Assembly: GCA_964401295.1 (NCBI GenBank)
Contig: CAYNXX010000003.1
Span: forward strand, 66,595-126,470
DNA: 59,876 nucleotides
Direction of reading: 5' to 3'
Source: an uncultured Candidatus Saccharibacteria bacterium
Lineage (GTDB): Bacteria; Patescibacteriota; Minisyncoccia; Minisyncoccales; CAYJUL01
The notes beneath the pieces are model-generated. The model was given only the letters and a program-made list of their open reading frames with translations, made no database searches and had not been told where the DNA came from. The position numbers were made by a program, and so were the translations under genes. This document shows positions 36,109 to 42,544 of this stretch, one piece after another (the first letter of the stretch is position 1; each line of letters begins with the position of its first letter).

Positions 36109-36822
36109 ATGTCTTATGTGCTTTATATTTTTTTAGCTTTTGCTCCCAGCGTAGTTTGGCTTTTATTTTATCTTGACAAAGATCGGCATCCCGAAGCCAA
36201 AGGAATGTTGTTTAAAATATTTCTCTACGGGGCCATGATAGCGCTTCCAGCGGCGTTAGCTGAAAGCGTTTTTGAAAAACAGCTTTATAGCCTTGTGCTT
36301 CCATCACGACTTTATTCATTAATCTATTTTTTTGTCATAGTCGGATTTATTGAAGAATTCGTAAAGTATTTGGCGGCTGATCTCGGTGCCTTTACAAGCT
36401 CGGAGCTAGATGAACCGATGGACATAATCATATATATGATAGTCGCGGCCCTTGGCTTTGCGGCCCTTGAAAATTCTTTATACCTGTGGCCGACCTTATA
36501 CGGCTTTGCCGCAAAAAACAATTTAGCCATACTCTTGGCCACTGAAAGATTCGTCGGTGCGACATTTTTGCATACGCTTACTTCCGGCTCGTTGGGCTAC
36601 TTTTTGGCGTTGTCTTATCACGATCAAAAGCGCAGAGCGATTTTTTTCGTTTTGGGATTTCTTGTTGCTATCGGCTTGCATGGACTTTTCAATTTCTCTA
36701 TAATAGAAGTTGAAGGCTTCTGGCAGCTTGGTATTCCGGGAGCGATATTAATAGGATTGGCGTTATTCCTTTCCTGGGCTATCCGCCAAGCCAAAAAAAT
36801 GCCAAGCGTTTGCAAGATTTAA
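36109..36822 (+). CDS. prsW: PrsW family intramembrane metalloprotease
   Basis: EE..KY, LGFAALEN, ATFLH, LHGLFN; multiple TMs. Confidence 0.9.
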   Translation: MSYVLYIFLAFAPSVVWLLFYLDKDRHPEAKGMLFKIFLYGAMIALPAALAESVFEKQLYSLVLPSRLYSLIYFFVIVGFIEEFVKYLAADLGAFTSSELDEPMDIIIYMIVAALGFAALENSLYLWPTLYGFAAKNNLAILLATERFVGATFLHTLTSGSLGYFLALSYHDQKRRAIFFVLGFLVAIGLHGLFNFSIIEVEGFWQLGIPGAILIGLALFLSWAIRQAKKMPSVCKI

Positions 36823-36895
36823 AATTAAAGGCTGGATTTATCCGCTAGGGCGGATTCATCTCGGATGGAAAAACTAAAAATTTAAATTATATATT

Positions 36896-37453
36896 ATGTC
36901 CTTTTTAGAAAAATTAAAACTCGATGTAGCGCAGGATGAAAAAGAGGAAGAAATTCAGCAAGAAACTGCTCCTAAAAGAAAACGGGGTAGGCCAAGAAAA
37001 AACCCTCAAACACAGCCCCAATCCGAAACCGAATCTGAAATGGAACAAAAATCTGCAGCTTCCGAAAAAATCCAGCGCCCAAAAGTAGAAAAAGTCGCGC
37101 CAAGATTTGAAGAGCGCGAAGAAGGGGAACTAACGATCGATGTTTATGAAACAGCGAATGATTTAGTAGTACAATCCCCCTTGGCCGGAGTAAAAGCCGA
37201 TGAATTAAACATATATCTTGAAGATGATATGCTAGTTATTAAGGGCGAAAGGCTGCGACCTGGAGAAGAAGACAAAAAAATGATAATACAAGAGTGCTAC
37301 TGGGGCCCATTTTCGCGGCGCGTAATTTTACCTATGGAGGTTGAGGGCAACAAAATTAACGCTTCTCTTGAACGCGGGATCTTAACCATCAGAATTCCCA
37401 AGGCTGAAAAAAGAGGCAAAAAGAAAATATCCGTTCAGGAATCTGAAGAATAA
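36896..37453 (+). CDS. Hsp20/alpha-crystallin protein with N-terminal AT-hook-like motif
   Basis: IDVYET, LAGV, ECYWGPFSR..ILP, GILTIRIPK; KRKRGRPRK in the N-terminal region. Confidence 0.9.
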   Translation: MSFLEKLKLDVAQDEKEEEIQQETAPKRKRGRPRKNPQTQPQSETESEMEQKSAASEKIQRPKVEKVAPRFEEREEGELTIDVYETANDLVVQSPLAGVKADELNIYLEDDMLVIKGERLRPGEEDKKMIIQECYWGPFSRRVILPMEVEGNKINASLERGILTIRIPKAEKRGKKKISVQESEE

Positions 37454-37464
37454 ACATTAAACTT

Positions 37465-37493
37465 ACCCCCTCGATCATGTACCGAGGGGTTTT
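37465..37493. terminator. Terminator after hsp20; would follow tRNA-Leu directly in the empty site
   Basis: CCCCTCG/CGAGGGG stem followed by TTTT. Confidence 0.7.
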
Positions 37494-37495
37494 GT

Positions 37496-37647
37496 GTGGA
37501 ATTATACAACTCTGCTCGAACATTTTTTGAACGGAACTGACCGCCTCCGCTTCGCTCCGGCGGAACGCTCGGGCGCGGCGGAATTCCCCCCTTGAACCCC
37601 CCTTCCGCCGCGCCCTCGCTTGGGCTTCGCAAATTTTTTGGCGGGCA
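37496..37647. repeat. Inverted repeat A, left copy (152 bp)
   Basis: Reverse complement of 39852-40003; the ORF track shows identical translations RSPSEGAAEGG...ELYNST. Confidence 0.95.
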
Positions 37648-37651
37648 TCAA

Positions 37652-38647
37652 TTATTGCGGAAGTTTCAATTTCTGTTGGGGCTGGGGTCCAATGAAAATC
37701 TGCTGAATCTGCTTACCCCAGGATACACCATGCGTACTCTCGTATAGTTTTACAAAGAAACTTCCGCCAAAGCTAACATTGAAAAAGCCGTTGAGCAAAA
37801 TATATGCTTCCCACAGCAAGTCTTGGAGTTCGTCGTCCGCCAGCTCAATTTTTAACCCAAACTCGGAAAGTTTTTCTAGCGGTAGAGGTCGAGAGTGTAG
37901 AAGATGTTTGTCGTAGTCAGAAAAATAGTTTACTGCTTTTCTAACTTTGCCAACGGCTTTTTTATCGCCCCCGAACATGTATTTCTTGAGCCAAGTTGAA
38001 ACAAGTTCTCGCGAAAGTTTTTCGGAATCCTCGCAAAGTTCCAGAAGATCAAGCGAGTATTTCTCAATGAGCGGAATGTAGGCCGGTAGCGTTTCCGGAC
38101 CTTCTTTTGCTATGCGTTCTTTTATTTTTTCAAAACCCCGCTTGATTGAACGCACGGGAATACCGTTGATTTGAGGGTCAATTGGCCCAAGAGTTGCGCT
38201 GGAATGCAGGACAATATTGTTTCCTGAAAGTGCAAGCATTGTGGCGGCAGAATACGCCGAATGGGGAATAAGAAAATTTACCTCACTAAATTTTCCGCGC
38301 AACAATCCGACAAGCCGCTCCGTAGCGTCTGGCCGTCCGCCCGGACTATGCAACAAAACATCAACGGAGCCATTCCCTTTAACTGAATTGATTAAATCAG
38401 TAAAACCGTCTACATCAGTTAAATCAATAAAATTCGGTGCGCCCTGCGGGACGCCTTCTAAAAACTTTGTTGCATAAACTAGGAGCGGGCGACCACGATG
38501 TTTTTCTATTTCTTCGTAGCATGCTTTACGGAGCTCAAATAAATCTTTCCCGGTCATTTTTTGACCGGATTGTTGCGCTTGTCCGATAAAATCGTTCCAA
38601 TCCTGCGCGGTCTTAAATTTTTTGCGCGGTTGTTGAGGCGACTCCAT
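37652..38647 (-). CDS. ClpP/crotonase-like serine protease (SDH/DUF114-like)
   Basis: LLHSPGG, AYSAATMLALS, LGPIDPQ, HSRP. Confidence 0.82.
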   Translation of the reverse strand: MESPQQPRKKFKTAQDWNDFIGQAQQSGQKMTGKDLFELRKACYEEIEKHRGRPLLVYATKFLEGVPQGAPNFIDLTDVDGFTDLINSVKGNGSVDVLLHSPGGRPDATERLVGLLRGKFSEVNFLIPHSAYSAATMLALSGNNIVLHSSATLGPIDPQINGIPVRSIKRGFEKIKERIAKEGPETLPAYIPLIEKYSLDLLELCEDSEKLSRELVSTWLKKYMFGGDKKAVGKVRKAVNYFSDYDKHLLHSRPLPLEKLSEFGLKIELADDELQDLLWEAYILLNGFFNVSFGGSFFVKLYESTHGVSWGKQIQQIFIGPQPQQKLKLPQ

Positions 38648-38846
38648 ACTGGTCTATTTCAAAATTAAGCGTTGAACCAGTCGCCGCCTTAAAAGCCGGT
38701 TTTCTGCCCAGCGCAACATCCGTCCTTTCGATAAGGTCGGTTGTTTCCTTGTAGTAGTCGTATGACTTTATGGCTTCTTCGTTCTGTTTCAGAACCTTTT
38801 TTGAAGCCACTTTCTCTATCAATTTTTGAGGGGTTTTATTAGTCAT
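38613..38846 (-). CDS. Small hypothetical protein overlapping the protease start
   Basis: 77-aa ATG ORF, TATAAG-like -10 upstream, 35-nt overlap. Confidence 0.6.
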   Translation of the reverse strand: MTNKTPQKLIEKVASKKVLKQNEEAIKSYDYYKETTDLIERTDVALGRKPAFKAATGSTLNFEIDQYGVASTTAQKI

Positions 38847-38899
38847 AGTGCTTATATAATACTAAATAGGACGGTGAAGGACAAGTTAAAATTACTCTT

Positions 38900-39136
38900 T
38901 TAAGATTTCTTTTTGAAATAATCAGAAAGCATCCCCAACAACTCCGCGCCAAATCCCAAGAGCGTTGCTACTGTCGCTACTTTAACAACTATATACCAAT
39001 CTGTTCCGCCGATAAATTTCCACAACACACCAGTAATGACTCCTGCTGTTAGACCACCCCAAACGGCATTTCTGCTGTTCCAATAAATAGCTAGCAGGAT
39101 TAATGATATTACAGCTAAAATTGTCCAAATATACAT
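38900..39136 (-). CDS. Small three-TM membrane protein
   Basis: Three hydrophobic segments, RNAVWGG motif. Confidence 0.75.
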   Translation of the reverse strand: MYIWTILAVISLILLAIYWNSRNAVWGGLTAGVITGVLWKFIGGTDWYIVVKVATVATLLGFGAELLGMLSDYFKKKS

Positions 39137-39141
39137 AATGT

Positions 39142-39564
39142 CTAATTATTTTTTGAATTTTCCGGCAATAAAATCTTTCCTTTATCGGAAACATTTTTTG
39201 CTCTTGCCGAAATTATAATCATTCCGATAACTGTTAGGGGGATAACAACTAACTCCCAATCATTTACTCGTCCTAAAATGGCAAGAGCAACAAAAATTAT
39301 AAAACTCAAATTTTTATTAAAATCTGAAACCATCGTGCGGCGATAGCCCATAATAAAAATGGAAAAATACAGAGCAAACTGAACGATAATTAAAAGCCAT
39401 ACAAACCACAATTCTGCGTCGGCGCGAACGACGTTAAGCCAGTAGGTTATACCCGCATAACCTAAAGCGGCTGCAATAATGCGAACAAAAAATGAATTCC
39501 GTTCCATTTTCAGGACCTCACCTTTGATAAATTCGTGTGCCTTGTTTTCGGTTTCCATAGTCAT
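39142..39564 (-). CDS. Four-TM membrane hypothetical protein
   Basis: Hydrophobic segments; ATGA coupling to the HTH gene. Confidence 0.75.
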   Translation of the reverse strand: MTMETENKAHEFIKGEVLKMERNSFFVRIIAAALGYAGITYWLNVVRADAELWFVWLLIIVQFALYFSIFIMGYRRTMVSDFNKNLSFIIFVALAILGRVNDWELVVIPLTVIGMIIISARAKNVSDKGKILLPENSKNN

Positions 39565-39782
39565 TTCACAAAATACCCAACGTTCTTTTTATAAAGCGTA
39601 GCAAACTTTTTGATCTCTACAATGTCCAATCTCTGTTCGCCTGCCTCTGATTTTGAAATATAAGATTGTGGCCGTTTCAGTTTCTTTGCGGCCTCAACCT
39701 GCGTCAAACCTGCTTCTAGGCGGGCTTTCTTCAGCTTTTCCGCAAAATCTTGATATTCCTTTGTTCGTATTGACCTACCCAT
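39561..39782 (-). CDS. XRE-family HTH transcriptional regulator
   Basis: LKKARLEAGLTQVEAAKKLKRPQSYISKSEAGEQRLDIVE. Confidence 0.93.
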   Translation of the reverse strand: MGRSIRTKEYQDFAEKLKKARLEAGLTQVEAAKKLKRPQSYISKSEAGEQRLDIVEIKKFATLYKKNVGYFVK

Positions 39783-39851
39783 ATATTAACAGGATATATT
39801 CACGAAAGCAATATTCAAAGTTAGAATAATATGCTATCCTTATTTTATGAT

Positions 39852-40114
39852 TGCCCGCCAAAAAATTTGCGAAGCCCAAGCGAGGGCGCGGCGGAAGGGG
39901 GGTTCAAGGGGGGAATTCCGCCGCGCCCGAGCGTTCCGCCGGAGCGAAGCGGAGGCGGTCAGTTCCGTTCAAAAAATGTTCGAGCAGAGTTGTATAATTC
40001 CACCAATATCAAACTTTCCGATTTTTGCCCGACCGATTCGGCCGCGCGAAGCGCGGAAAGGTATGGAAACACTGGTTCGCCGCGCACGGCGCGGCTCGCC
40101 AAGCGCAGGTTCGA
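39852..40114. repeat. Internal composite repeat A'+B (263 bp), an inverted copy of the predicted circle junction
   Basis: 39852-40003 = revcomp of 37496-37647; 40001-40114 = revcomp of 41522-41635; also 40116-40130 = revcomp of 41462-41476. Confidence 0.95.
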
Positions 40115-40156
40115 AATCCCTTGCGATTTTAAGTATTTGCTTTGCCCACTAAAACT

Positions 40157-41722
40157 ATGAATGACTCAAACCAAAAATTCATTTTGTATGCCCGCAAGTC
40201 CACTGATGTGGAAGATAAGCAAGTCCGGTCTATTGAAGATCAAATTGCAGAATTGCGTGCCTTCGCCAAGCAAGAAAATATCTCTATTGCGGAAATTTTG
40301 ATTGAAAAACAATCCGCCAAAATTCCAGGCCGTCCCATTTTTAACAATATGCTCGACAGAATTGAGAAAGGTGAAACCAACGGAATTTTGGCGTGGCACC
40401 CAGACAGATTGGCGCGCAATTCTGTTGATGGCGGACGGCTTATCTTCCTCTTGGACACGGGAAAACTTGCGGGCTTAAAATTTCCGACATTTTGGTTTGA
40501 GCCAACTCCTCAAGGCAAGTTCATGTTGAACATTGCCTTTGGGCAAAGCAAATACTACGTGGACTCTCTTTCCGAAAACACGAAGCGTGGTTTGCGTCAA
40601 AAAGTTAAGAGGGGCGAATATCCGAGCGTTGCGCCTATTGGCTATATAAACGATTCGCGTACTAAATCTATCGTCGTGGACAAGAAGAAAGCTCAGATTA
40701 TTCGCGAGGCATTTGAGCTGTACGCTAAAGGAAATTCGCGGTTAGAGGATATATCCGACTTTTTGGCGCAACGCGGGATTCTATCTCGCGGCGGAAAGAG
40801 AATCCACAAGACGAGGGCGACTTTTATCCTTTCCAATCCTTTTTACACTGGACTATTTCGCTACTCTGGCGAAATATACGAGGGTAAGCACGAGCCAATC
40901 ATCACAAAGAAACTTTTTGATACGGCGCAAGAGATTTTGAAGCAACGAGGCAAGCCGCGCCACAAACAGAAAAATGAGCCGCAAGCGTTTTGTAGCCTTA
41001 TCTCTTGCGCCGAATGCGGCATGATGATAACTGCCGAAAAACAAAAAGGGCATATTTACTATCGTTGCACCAAAAAGAAAATCAAATGTTCTCAACCTTA
41101 CACCAGAGAGGAAGAATTGGATCGGCAGTTATCATCTCTTATTCAAAAAGTTTCTTTGCGTCAGGATTGGGCGGAAAAACTTTTGAAAATGGCGGGAGCG
41201 GACAAAGAGAAATCCGCCCAATCCGTTTCTGCTTTTGTTCTTGAATCACAAAATACAATCCGCGCCATAAATAACAAACTCCAGCGACTTTTAGAGGGCT
41301 ACTTGGAGCAAGATATTGAGCGCGAAACCTACCGAGAAGAAAAAGCAAAATTATTGGGTGAGAAAAAGTCGCTGGAGGAGAAAATGGCGCGGATTGAACA
41401 AAAGCAGAATGATTGGCTCGAACCCTTTCAAAACTGGATAAAAGTCGCTTCAAACCTCGTCAAAATCGCAAGGGATAGCAACCTTTTGGAGAAGAAGGTT
41501 GCTGCCAAAGAAATCTTTGGCTCGAACCTGCGCTTGGCGAGCCGCGCCGTGCGCGGCGAACCAGTGTTTCCATACCTTTCCGCGCTTCGCGCGGCCGAAT
41601 CGGTCGGGCAAAAATCGGAAAGTTTGATATTGGTGCCCTCGACAGGATTTGAACCTGTAACCCTTTCGGGACAGCGTCCTAAGCGCTGCGCGTATGCCAA
41701 TTCCGCCACGAGGGCATCCTAA
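40157..41722 (+). CDS. Large serine recombinase (resolvase + recombinase + zinc ribbon + coiled coil)
   Basis: YARKST catalytic motif, DRLARN, SENTKRG, CAECG...YYRC..C; last 28 aa are antisense tRNA and flank. Confidence 0.95.
   Translation: MNDSNQKFILYARKSTDVEDKQVRSIEDQIAELRAFAKQENISIAEILIEKQSAKIPGRPIFNNMLDRIEKGETNGILAWHPDRLARNSVDGGRLIFLLDTGKLAGLKFPTFWFEPTPQGKFMLNIAFGQSKYYVDSLSENTKRGLRQKVKRGEYPSVAPIGYINDSRTKSIVVDKKKAQIIREAFELYAKGNSRLEDISDFLAQRGILSRGGKRIHKTRATFILSNPFYTGLFRYSGEIYEGKHEPIITKKLFDTAQEILKQRGKPRHKQKNEPQAFCSLISCAECGMMITAEKQKGHIYYRCTKKKIKCSQPYTREEELDRQLSSLIQKVSLRQDWAEKLLKMAGADKEKSAQSVSAFVLESQNTIRAINNKLQRLLEGYLEQDIERETYREEKAKLLGEKKSLEEKMARIEQKQNDWLEPFQNWIKVASNLVKIARDSNLLEKKVAAKEIFGSNLRLASRAVRGEPVFPYLSALRAAESVGQKSESLILVPSTGFEPVTLSGQRPKRCAYANSATRAS
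41522..41635. repeat. Inverted repeat B, right copy (114 bp) within the recombinase 3' end
   Basis: Reverse complement of 40001-40114. Confidence 0.95.
41631..41715 (-). tRNA. tRNA-Leu(TAG)
   Basis: GCCCTCG acceptor, CAGCG-CTTAGGA-CGCTG anticodon arm, variable arm, GGTTCAAATCC, ACCA. Confidence 0.95.
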
Positions 41723-41823
41723 TTTTTCCGGCTCTCTTTCCGTTCCAGTTATTATAATCTTAAAAACCAAGCCGCCCGTCTAATAGAGGGCGGCATCTAA
41801 TTCAACACTTGAAACCCAAAATT

Positions 41824-42156
41824 CTAAAGTAAGTTGCTCGCTACGTAGACTATTCCTTTGGCCGCCACGGCTACAACTATACCCACTATCGCATATAGCA
41901 GTTTTTGGCGAGCTGTAGTTACTTTTCCAGGATCGCCGCCGCCGGTAACAAAGTCAAGCGCGGCCCAAAGAATAAAGATTACCGCCACTGCCAAAAGAAC
42001 GGAAAATATCCAATTGGCTATGGTGTTTAACAGCGCGATAAGATCATTTATGCTCCGCGGCCCAGGCGGTAAATCCCTTAGCTCTCCCTGCGCGCCGACA
42101 ACTATTGGTATTGTCGACAAACCAATAGTTAATAATGATTTGAATAATTTTTTCAT
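41824..42156 (-). CDS. VirB2/TrbC-like pilin (CPR-type)
   Basis: Signal peptide, two TMs flanking GGDPGKVTTARQKLLYAIVG. Confidence 0.8.
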   Translation of the reverse strand: MKKLFKSLLTIGLSTIPIVVGAQGELRDLPPGPRSINDLIALLNTIANWIFSVLLAVAVIFILWAALDFVTGGGDPGKVTTARQKLLYAIVGIVVAVAAKGIVYVASNLL

Positions 42157-42211
42157 ATTTGAAGCTATATTAATAAGTAGTCGACCTTTATATTTTTATG
42201 TAATTTTGCAA

Positions 42212-42544
42212 TCAACCAAGCGGTTGTATGAGTTGGGTTTTTATGATCTCCATAAGACCGCCGGATATGGCAATTACCAAAAAACCTATTACAGCCCATA
42301 AAAGAAGCTGTTTTGCGCGACTAACCTTTGTTGGATCTCCTTCGCTGAACATAAAATTAAATCCGGCAATGATGATCACTATAACCGTTAGCGGTATGGC
42401 CAAATTGAAAATAAACGTCGCTATGGCTCTCATCAAATCGTAAAAAGTATTGTATTGAAGAGGGTTTGGTATGCTTACCTCCGCGGCGAAAGCAAAACCG
42501 ACCCATAAGCTTGCTGCTAATATTGTGAATAAGATCTTTCTCAT
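42212..42544 (-). CDS. VirB2/TrbC-like pilin (CPR-type), paralog
   Basis: Signal peptide, IPNPL, two TMs flanking EGDPTKVSRAKQLLLWAVIG. Confidence 0.8.
   Translation of the reverse strand: MRKILFTILAASLWVGFAFAAEVSIPNPLQYNTFYDLMRAIATFIFNLAIPLTVIVIIIAGFNFMFSEGDPTKVSRAKQLLLWAVIGFLVIAISGGLMEIIKTQLIQPLG

Follow-up and report, generated by a model that had tools for sequence, protein, structure and literature searches.

Why would a small integrative element carry, inverted and just ahead of its recombinase gene, a second copy of the junction that its own excision would create? This question is raised by positions 37496-41635 of a 59,876-nucleotide stretch of DNA from an uncultured Candidatus Saccharibacteria bacterium (GenBank assembly GCA_964401295.1, contig CAYNXX010000003.1, positions 66,595 to 126,470 of the forward strand). 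The whole stretch is referred to as the window, and coordinates are those of the window unless a contig or a locus is named. The region holds an element of the large serine recombinase type beside a tRNA-Leu gene, and its internal inverted copy was pointed out in an earlier note made from the sequence of the window. Comparison with homologous elements places the crossover inside the recombinase gene, so that the internal copy is a spare 3' end of this gene. The same layout is shared by a family of elements whose target is the 3' end common to tRNAs, and the spare end may form part of an invertible switch of the integrase.

The internal copy and the integrase gene

Two inverted repeats, both 100% complementary, were returned by a repeat finder. 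The first (I1, 152 nucleotides or nt) pairs 37496-37647 with 39852-40003 and the second (I2, 114 nt) pairs 40001-40114 with 41522-41635. Perfect repeats of 152 and 114 nt cannot be explained by chance. Their internal arms share the trinucleotide CAC at 40001-40003, and the 263 nt thus fused are the reverse complement of the junction expected from excision of the element. They are located between a minus-strand gene for an XRE-type regulator (39561-39782) and the start of the recombinase. A further inverted repeat of 15 nt (I12, 100%, 40116-40130 against 41462-41476) lies 1 nt past the internal copy on the leader side, yet 45 nt ahead of the right-end arm. In the 683-kb genome, full matches of the 263-nt copy are confined to these three places of the window, besides which contig C7 has a relative at 87% and contig C8 a short piece at 85%.

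The architecture described in the earlier note was thereby recovered by repeat finding and by the positions of the open reading frames (ORFs): exact inverted copies of both ends, fused through a shared CAC, lying between the divergent XRE gene and the recombinase start, followed by another 15-nt match after a skip of about 45 nt, and together equal to the sequence made by excision and circularisation. This structural reading holds. It had missed that the crossover lies inside the recombinase gene, that the copy is a spare 3' end of that gene and that tRNA 3' ends are targeted generally rather than tRNA-Leu.

The element-side arm of attL is called L here (37496-37647, plus strand) and that of attR is called R (41522-41635, plus strand). 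The internal inverted attP (39852-40114, minus strand) is composed of L' (39852-40003) and R' (40001-40114), with the crossover at the CAC that they share. The integrated element is ordered attL, cargo, inverted attP, integrase gene and attR, and the circle formed after excision would hold two inverted attP sites.

The limits of the element are illustrated by a same-genus genome (G001) with the same neighbourhood, i.e. valS, a membrane protease gene, hsp20, tRNA-Leu(tag), two pilin-like genes and gyrA, in which only 69 nt separate hsp20 from the tRNA gene. Because a relative has this empty site, 37496-41635 is identified as 4.1 kb of inserted DNA, bounded by the hsp20 terminator and the tRNA-Leu 3' end. 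A search for the empty hsp20-terminator-tRNA-Leu site had been suggested in the earlier note. The two ends of the element have only the three nucleotides GTG in common, which makes a short crossover without long direct repeats. Such a discrete insertion, with an empty counterpart in a relative and a short crossover, is what is expected of a serine-integrase element. The target gene, tRNA-Leu(tag) (41631-41715, minus strand; ARAGORN, and Rfam tRNA with 57 bits), stays whole: the crossover coincides with the discriminator/CCA, and the tRNA 3' end is overlapped by the final 5 nt of the right arm. In the empty site of G001 the tRNA-Leu gene has no encoded CCA and reads ...A-CAC (L099:1890-1905). 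In our reading of the two sequences, the element end at 41631-41635 supplies the last two bases of the encoded CCA of the tRNA in the window.

The recombinase gene in its integrated form extends from a likely ATG at 40157 to 41722 on the plus strand, the ORF being open from 40142. Its product contains the Pfam domains Resolvase (PF00239, E-value 2e-22), Recombinase (PF07508, E-value 2e-17) and Zn_ribbon_recom (PF13408, E-value 8e-8), that is, the catalytic resolvase, recombinase and zinc-ribbon combination of a large serine recombinase. The zinc ribbon is followed by a long predicted coiled coil (helices 332-380, 385-415 and 417-435 in AlphaFold2, with a predicted local distance difference test, pLDDT, of 85-95). 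Residues Y7, R9, S11 and others of the catalytic region are invariant across 63 aligned sequences. From these sequence features, the insertion is assigned to the integrative elements of large serine recombinases and its enzyme is predicted to recombine attP with attB. The best NCBIfam match, searched with the relative P0003, is CcrB (NF047343) with 108.8 bits; an identification of the integrase as CcrB was rejected, the score being far under the equivalog cut-off of 900. An invertase of the Hin/Gin type was also rejected, as the protein has about 500 residues with recombinase and zinc-ribbon domains and the repeats measure 114-285 nt, against about 190 residues, a C-terminal helix-turn-helix and 26-bp sites in that type.

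The crossover falls inside this gene, 13 codons ahead of the true stop codon in the window and 13-17 codons ahead of it in the family loci listed. R contains the last 38 native codons before the crossover (residues 461-498 of the window ORF). The region that it encodes is conserved at the protein level in homologues and is modelled as ordered in P0003 (helices 439-450 and 469-477, hairpin 455-462; AlphaFold2, mean pLDDT 78 with the alignment of 63 sequences). L carries the GTG of the crossover, followed by the 13 codons of the native integrase tail (ELYNSARTFFERN), the stop codon and G+C-rich hairpins. Past the crossover, integrated genes read through antisense tRNA and end in tails of very variable length, for instance PSTGFEPVT or GALGFEPRT. 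In the window, ...LILV is followed by PSTGFEPVT..., and the residues encoded beyond 41635 correspond to antisense tRNA-Leu. Across the circle junction, as read on the minus strand of the internal copy, the same frame leads to a short conserved tail: ELYNSARTFFERN in the window, where the ORF at 39959-40102 (minus strand) is the spare integrase 3' end, RLFDEIRTFFEQN in L022, YIYNYARTYFIKN in L062 and PLYAEIRTYFEQN in L092.

The tail conforms to [RQ]-T-[FYHI]-F in 42 of the 47 evaluable loci. The five misses are L032, where a tRNA occupies this place, L039, L052 and L074, where the repeat match is partial and the reading window misplaced, and L070, where bases are masked. The variation within the tail is of the coding kind (arginine as CGA or AGA, threonine with all four third bases, TTT or TTC). 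Native-tailed proteins are also present in metagenomes, namely P0003 (502 residues, full length, 22 member sequences) and P0010. Since the crossover lies inside the integrase gene, integration swaps a conserved tail for antisense-tRNA read-through, and the internal copy is a spare 3' end of the gene. This coding reading comes with a caveat. A TCGAAC-like motif of the element arm stands 4 nt farther from the centre of the pseudo-palindromic site than does the T-loop TTCGAA of the tRNA arm, and this motif of the tail stretch may also be a candidate binding site of the enzyme.

The internal copy is an inverted duplicate of the gene 3' end and comprises the 38 codons that lead up to the crossover, the 13 codons of the tail, the stop codon and the G+C-rich hairpins. 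In window-like loci the leader is a colinear mosaic of reverse-complemented pieces of the gene (codons ~118, 126 and 436-447), and identical deletion junctions recur in the leaders of many loci. The internal copy has the appearance of an inverted gene copy that has undergone many deletions. Likewise, the leader patches at 40116-40130 and 40132-40148 (plus strand), reverse complements of integrase codons ~436-440 and 128-133 (I12 and I7), look like relics of a longer inverted integrase copy. The suggestion of the earlier note that the repeat is evolved and not freshly copied is borne out because the same deletion junctions recur in many loci. The copies of L106 and L110 retain a 45-nt stretch that is absent from the window copy, and their R measures 175 nt. 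Among the substitutions that distinguish 14 elements from the consensus, 380 are common to both copies and 15 are private to one. The internal copy is therefore kept in step with the working gene through ongoing exchange between the copies; the comparison of homologous elements that had been proposed as a check finds it both present and co-varying with the ends.

Additionally, the leader of the window at 40116-40148 is perfectly complementary to coding segments 40540-40556 and 41462-41476 of the same gene. In P0004, a metagenome ORF of 188 residues, the first ~121 codons of the integrase are continued by the leader, read on the minus strand, and by the native tail. Such a structure is expected from an inversion between short leader and coding patches and was observed in a single 1084-nt contig.

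A family of elements at tRNA 3' ends

In a scan of one genome per species, relatives of the recombinase were encoded in 525 stretches, of which the 80 best were kept. Together with the window they form 81 loci, nearly all of them in metagenome-assembled genomes of Patescibacteria originating from many studies and assemblers. An R/R' pair, placed just upstream of the gene and at its 3' end, was found in 65 of the 81 loci, with an identity of 100% in 39, at least 98% in 48 and a minimum of 77.7%. As for the 16 loci without it, the gene is cut by a contig end in several (e.g. L049, L053, L068, L088), bases are masked in L030 and L037, no ORF of 300 residues with the motif used is present in L058, L077 and L096, and the remainder show no repeat.

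The L/L' pair that flanks the cargo was found in 12 of the 19 loci having at least 5 kb upstream; it measures 136-283 nt, is 90-100% identical and has L' abutting R'. The loci without this pair among the 19 are L032, L044, L053, L055, L070, L094 and the first element of L095. Both pairs are also present in L039, L060 and the second element of L095. Nine further loci on large contigs, whose integrases are 44-53% identical to that of the window, have the R/R' pair in eight cases and both pairs in seven. Five of these nine loci belong to single-contig genomes; both pairs are present in four of them and no repeat in L119. Overall, a close relative of the integrase (E-value <1e-80) occurs in 69 of 401 genomes that constitute an even sample of the phylum.

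Many homologous genes begin 100-600 nt from a contig end (loci L018-L097 and the phylum sample), which is read as repeats breaking assemblies. The repeat layout seems to be a common cause of assembly breaks beside tRNA genes in these genomes. The same observation, together with repeats that are perfect and longer than common assembly word sizes, could suggest that the repeat is itself a chimera of assembly or of multiple displacement amplification. This explanation was tested and rejected, and can be dismissed for practical purposes. Imperfect copies (78-99%) are present in 26 of the 65 loci across many studies and assemblers, and the layout recurs in single-contig genomes. In the likely source sample, independent Logan contigs span both the flank-to-L junction and the junction from L to the start of the cargo (36900-42200 compared). 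Their depth over the cargo (8.5 and 13.6) is close to that of the flanks (6-8.5 and 11.6-12.2), they end at the repeats, and no joint across 37495/41636 was seen among those listed for this sample. The earlier note had named an assembly or amplification chimera, or homologues devoid of an internal copy, as the cases that would undo its reading; the imperfect copies and the single-contig genomes speak for the contrary. The layout is a real design shared across the family.

The recombinase ORF reads into an antisense tRNA gene in 60 of the 71 loci with a complete gene end, a script count that misses L046 through a filter although this locus also reads into antisense tRNA. The target tRNAs represent 14 amino-acid identities and about 28 anticodons, a few of which may belong to the second tRNA of an array. 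In every case the repeat arm ends 3-8 nt within the tRNA 3' end, and the sequence beyond the crossover on the far side is unrelated between loci. Since many different tRNAs are hit and the arm always ends within their 3' end, the target is the end shared by tRNAs in general, i.e. that of almost any tRNA. Relatives are present in the genome of the window itself. One lies beside tRNA-Arg(ccg) and has the inverted repeat in two pieces (C1:182265-183604, L007), another lies beside tRNA-Ser(gga) with two TAG stops and no repeat (C3:1264-2712, L008), and another, cut by a contig end, has an internal copy without most of L (C7:2-506, L004).

A proposed invertible integrase switch and its alternatives

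Our tentative answer to the opening question, to which we would give a little less than an even chance, is that the internal copy is part of an invertible two-state integrase switch. Integration via the attP at the gene 3' end would remove the C-terminal tail and fuse the gene to antisense tRNA, which would constitute a locked form; this integrated, tRNA-fused form is the one found in nearly all assemblies. The tail-less enzyme would keep the element, and the many tRNA targets of the host, quiet. Meanwhile, tail and attP would both be preserved intact within the element, in the spare copy. The gene body could be flipped by an exchange between the two R copies, made by host homologous recombination or by the recombinase itself, and the concerted evolution of the copies implies host recombination between them. 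After such a flip the gene would read into the spare copy and regain its native tail, while sitting downstream of the tRNA gene and co-directional with it. The flipped form would be the active one, excising or moving the element. In its most specific version, which is proposed with somewhat greater reserve, the integrase would be phase-variable: its own gene body would be the invertible segment, turned off by the tail swap of integration and on by a flip under tRNA read-through, in an enzyme recognising nearly all tRNA 3' ends.

Metagenome contigs were searched for the 3' body of the gene followed by the native tail, a pattern that selects flipped forms, and 11 loci were found. In L108, tRNA-Val is followed by the leader-side R, the leader and the integrase gene on the strand of the tRNA, and the gene reads via the other R into L and thus into the native tail. 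L108 represents the flipped gene-body state with a restored native tail, so that the gene arm is found in nature in either orientation, and it lends some direct support to inversion of the recombinase arm, one of the roles listed in the earlier note. Its integrase gene carries one in-frame stop, which fits, in this one case only, the non-persistence of active flipped copies. The near-absence of flipped copies from genomes and the broken gene of L108, a single case, fit the switch. Also in its favour, the internal attP has encountered a second tRNA gene at least once, in L032 (see below), and the tRNA-Gly of L053 is placed at the leader-side copy.

L109 and L111 both read partial R', integrase gene, R joined to L, cargo and partial L', with a native-tailed gene and with both contig ends inside repeats; L111 holds a 3' gene end matching P0003. 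They are equally compatible with a circle having two attP sites and with integrated copies broken at the repeats. L105, L107, L112 and L113 are fragments in which the native tail is followed by cargo, L106 and L110 are ordinary integrated copies, and the state of L103 and L104 is ambiguous. Two different complete attP-type junctions, 80% alike, enclose the integrase gene in L103, and L104 has perfect terminal inverted repeats of 602 nt that include 97 codons of the gene end. These two loci may be nested elements or ambiguous assembly paths.

Several points weigh against the switch. Since perfect repeats yield identical words, Logan contigs cannot separate the inversion isomers or the circle junction from the integrated form. 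The inactivity of the tRNA-tailed protein is something that we infer in the model, and the flipped state is represented by one metagenome contig with a broken gene. None of the 47 evaluable genome loci is flipped, so that flipping must be rare or strongly selected against. L053, in which tRNA-Gly abuts the leader-side copy and the contig ends in R, could be either a flipped state or a two-tRNA arrangement. The XRE gene, present in 6 of the 16 elements compared, is found beside the internal attP on the minus strand in all six, and the cargo arm therefore does not flip freely. The length of the L repeat, 136-285 nt and far past the tail codons, is left unexplained by a switch. Finally, residues 491-502 of the P0003 model, which make up most of the tail, have a pLDDT below 50 and just 4 of the 63 aligned sequences bear the tail, for which reasons AlphaFold2 is neutral on it.

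The internal attP could instead be a regulatory site. The recombinase would bind the copy upstream of its own gene and so repress or titrate itself, or else a leader antisense to the gene 3' end and to two or three coding patches would pair with the mRNA and limit translation. The position of the copy, between the likely promoter region by the XRE gene and the start codon, agrees with such a role, as do the patches, which are complementary to coding segments and one of which stands directly ahead of the ATG in 7 loci. Variant letters of the patches are matched on both sides in L023, L034, L038 and L047, which could reflect gene conversion or long-range mRNA pairing. Nevertheless, the patches occur mainly in window-like loci and were not found in distant ones, whereas the repeat layout is family-wide. 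The leader folds no better than shuffled sequences (z-score -0.15, against -2.0 for L). Promoter-like matches are at chance level (6 observed, 6.8 expected) and include two weak sites at 39786-39827, near the XRE gene. Moreover, a binding site needs about 50 bp and not 263 bp. Regulation is considered an unlikely explanation.

It is slightly less probable still that the second attP is a second working donor site, with integration by either site, double recombination with two tRNAs, and cassette exchange or chromosomal inversion as outcomes, tail switching being a side effect. L032, where the integrase module is located between tRNA-Val and tRNA-Leu with both 3' ends facing it, has the arrangement that would be expected from recombination of the internal attP with a second tRNA gene. 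No other clear two-tRNA case was found among the 47 evaluable loci, and the decay of the L032 repeats to 89% is suggestive of a dead end. The cargo between the L copies is highly varied (XRE, methyltransferase, GuaA-like, ArsR with permease and others), which counts for this reading. Against it, host DNA would be inverted or deleted whenever the internal attP recombined with other tRNA genes, and such rearrangements should be deleterious. A two-attP circle would read as L109 and L111 do, and broken integrated copies fit these two loci equally. A similarly low probability is given to the copy being a functionless relic, left by an ancestral inverted duplication of the integrase gene that decayed by deletions, and of which the remainder is kept identical by gene conversion. 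The colinear mosaic of the leader with its shared deletion junctions, the longer portion of the gene kept by some copies (R of 175 nt in L106 and L110) and the strong concerted evolution are in line with this origin. However, the copy and its outer limits are retained at 44-53% integrase identity while their surroundings are replaced, and a useless 263-bp repeat that rearranges its host should vanish fast from genomes of 0.6-1.3 Mb. Elements that decay do lose the repeat, as seen at C3:1264-2712 and in L119.

The cargo of the window is encoded on the minus strand. It comprises a ClpP-like SDH-type serine proteinase (37652-38647; Pfam PF01972, E-value 5e-17), which scores 70 bits against NCBIfam Clp_like_SDH, under the cut-off of 250, and three small ORFs (38613-38846, 38900-39136 and 39142-39564), two of which are membrane-protein-like by sequence. 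These small ORFs gave no Pfam family over cut-off and no PADLOC match. The XRE-type helix-turn-helix regulator (39561-39782; Pfam HTH_3, E-value 3e-9) is divergent from the integrase gene, and PADLOC, run on the five cargo proteins, gave just generic helix-turn-helix matches for it. A temperate phage or prophage was rejected in view of this cargo of protease, small ORFs and XRE regulator, and because the viral contigs of IMG/VR contain no full relative of the integrase, only two N-terminal fragments. Directly past the tRNA, two pilin-like genes of the type IV secretion kind (PF18895; 41824-42156 and 42212-42544) are chromosomal, since they are also present at the empty site of G001. A similar pilin-like gene is cargo beside the recombinase copy on contig C7.

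The repeat was also examined at the RNA level. An Rfam covariance search of 36800-42300, with E-values up to 1, had solely the tRNA reach threshold, and a structured RNA in the repeat was rejected on this basis and on the folding energies given above. A terminator scan found no terminator-like site in L or L', and no conserved start codon or ribosome-binding site was seen for the minus-strand ORF 39959-40102 as a separate peptide. The G+C-rich hairpin of L (37540-37620) has a 13-bp stem and a C-rich loop, and recurs with a compensated stem change at C8:18818-18864 (L005) and in L108. In the likely source sample, summed Logan depth over 37431-37607 is 10-30 times the flank depth. Folded single-stranded att sites are known from CTX phage and from integron attC. 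An attP of this kind was rejected by reasoning, because double-strand exchange on a one-strand stem would leave hairpin-capped chromosome ends.

Comparison with known recombination systems

The family combines three parts in a widespread design: the gene contains its attP, a further attP is present as an inverted spare, and the target is common to nearly all tRNA genes. Its elements bring varied cargo into genomes of 0.6-1.3 Mb, for which few other ways of acquiring genes are known, and they would explain the frequent assembly breaks beside tRNA genes in these genomes. As natural landing sites would be numerous for an integrase that accepts any tRNA 3' end, such an enzyme is also of interest as a practical tool. 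If it were phase-variable, it would constitute a natural multi-site serine integrase with a built-in safety catch. Full-text literature searches, with subscription journals largely outside their scope, returned no description of a serine-recombinase element that has an inverted attP in its interior.

The phage serine integrases (phiC31, Bxb1, A118, SPbeta) share with the recombinase of the window the same domain set, short sites without long direct repeats and a crossover of a few bases (overlaps of 3-8 nt). An offset between the half-sites of attP and attB is known for serine integrases and resembles the 4-nt offset of the motif described above. In contrast with the window element, those of the phages have one attP outside the gene, one target site and a directionality factor for excision. 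The staphylococcal cassette chromosome SCCmec is related through its Ccr recombinases, CcrB being the best family match of the integrase, far below the cut-off at 109 bits against 900. Ccr enzymes integrate and excise without a separate directionality factor, and SCC targets one gene end, that of rlmH. Unlike SCCmec, the window element has no CcrA partner, and SCC is not known to have an internal att copy.

The division of a circle into two arms by two inverted sites, to which the earlier note had likened the layout, is found in the yeast 2-micron plasmid with FLP/FRT and in the Hin/Gin systems, and the hin gene lies within its own invertible segment. FLP, a tyrosine recombinase, acts on a plasmid that replicates, and Hin and Gin belong to the small serine invertases, which use 26-bp sites together with an enhancer; neither kind is known to integrate. 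The archaeal integrases of the SSV type come close in another respect: the integrase gene contains attP and is split or truncated upon integration, and tRNA genes are the targets. They are nonetheless tyrosine recombinases and are not known to have a spare inverted copy of the gene end. An SSV-type integrase has reportedly been linked to chromosome inversions.

The closest parallel among serine recombinases is offered by the ssrA islands of Dehalococcoides. There, a stable-RNA gene has at its 3' end a small island that encodes a CcrB-like serine integrase, DsiB; the authors remark that dsiB overlaps attP/attL, which leaves its stop codon unclear, and that the complete gene may exist only on the circle (PMC3146451). 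These islands resemble the window family in having a CcrB-like recombinase, an RNA-gene 3' end as target and a gene overlapping attP, but differ from it by a single tmRNA target, a second recombinase (DsiA) and a larger module (PMC3146451). No internal inverted copy of attP is described in the text, in which the word 'inverted' does not occur (PMC3146451).

Serine-integrase elements, an attP within the integrase gene (SSV-type, Dehalococcoides) and recombinase genes in invertible segments are thus already known separately. What the searches did not recover elsewhere, and what appears to be new, is their combination: a spare attP that is conserved, inverted and derived from the end of the gene itself, within a family targeting tRNA 3' ends generally. 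On the usual view, a serine integrase requires one attP, one attB and, separately, a directionality factor. If the switch proposed here is real, the control of direction would lie in the layout of the DNA and not in a protein partner, a new solution in site-specific recombination.

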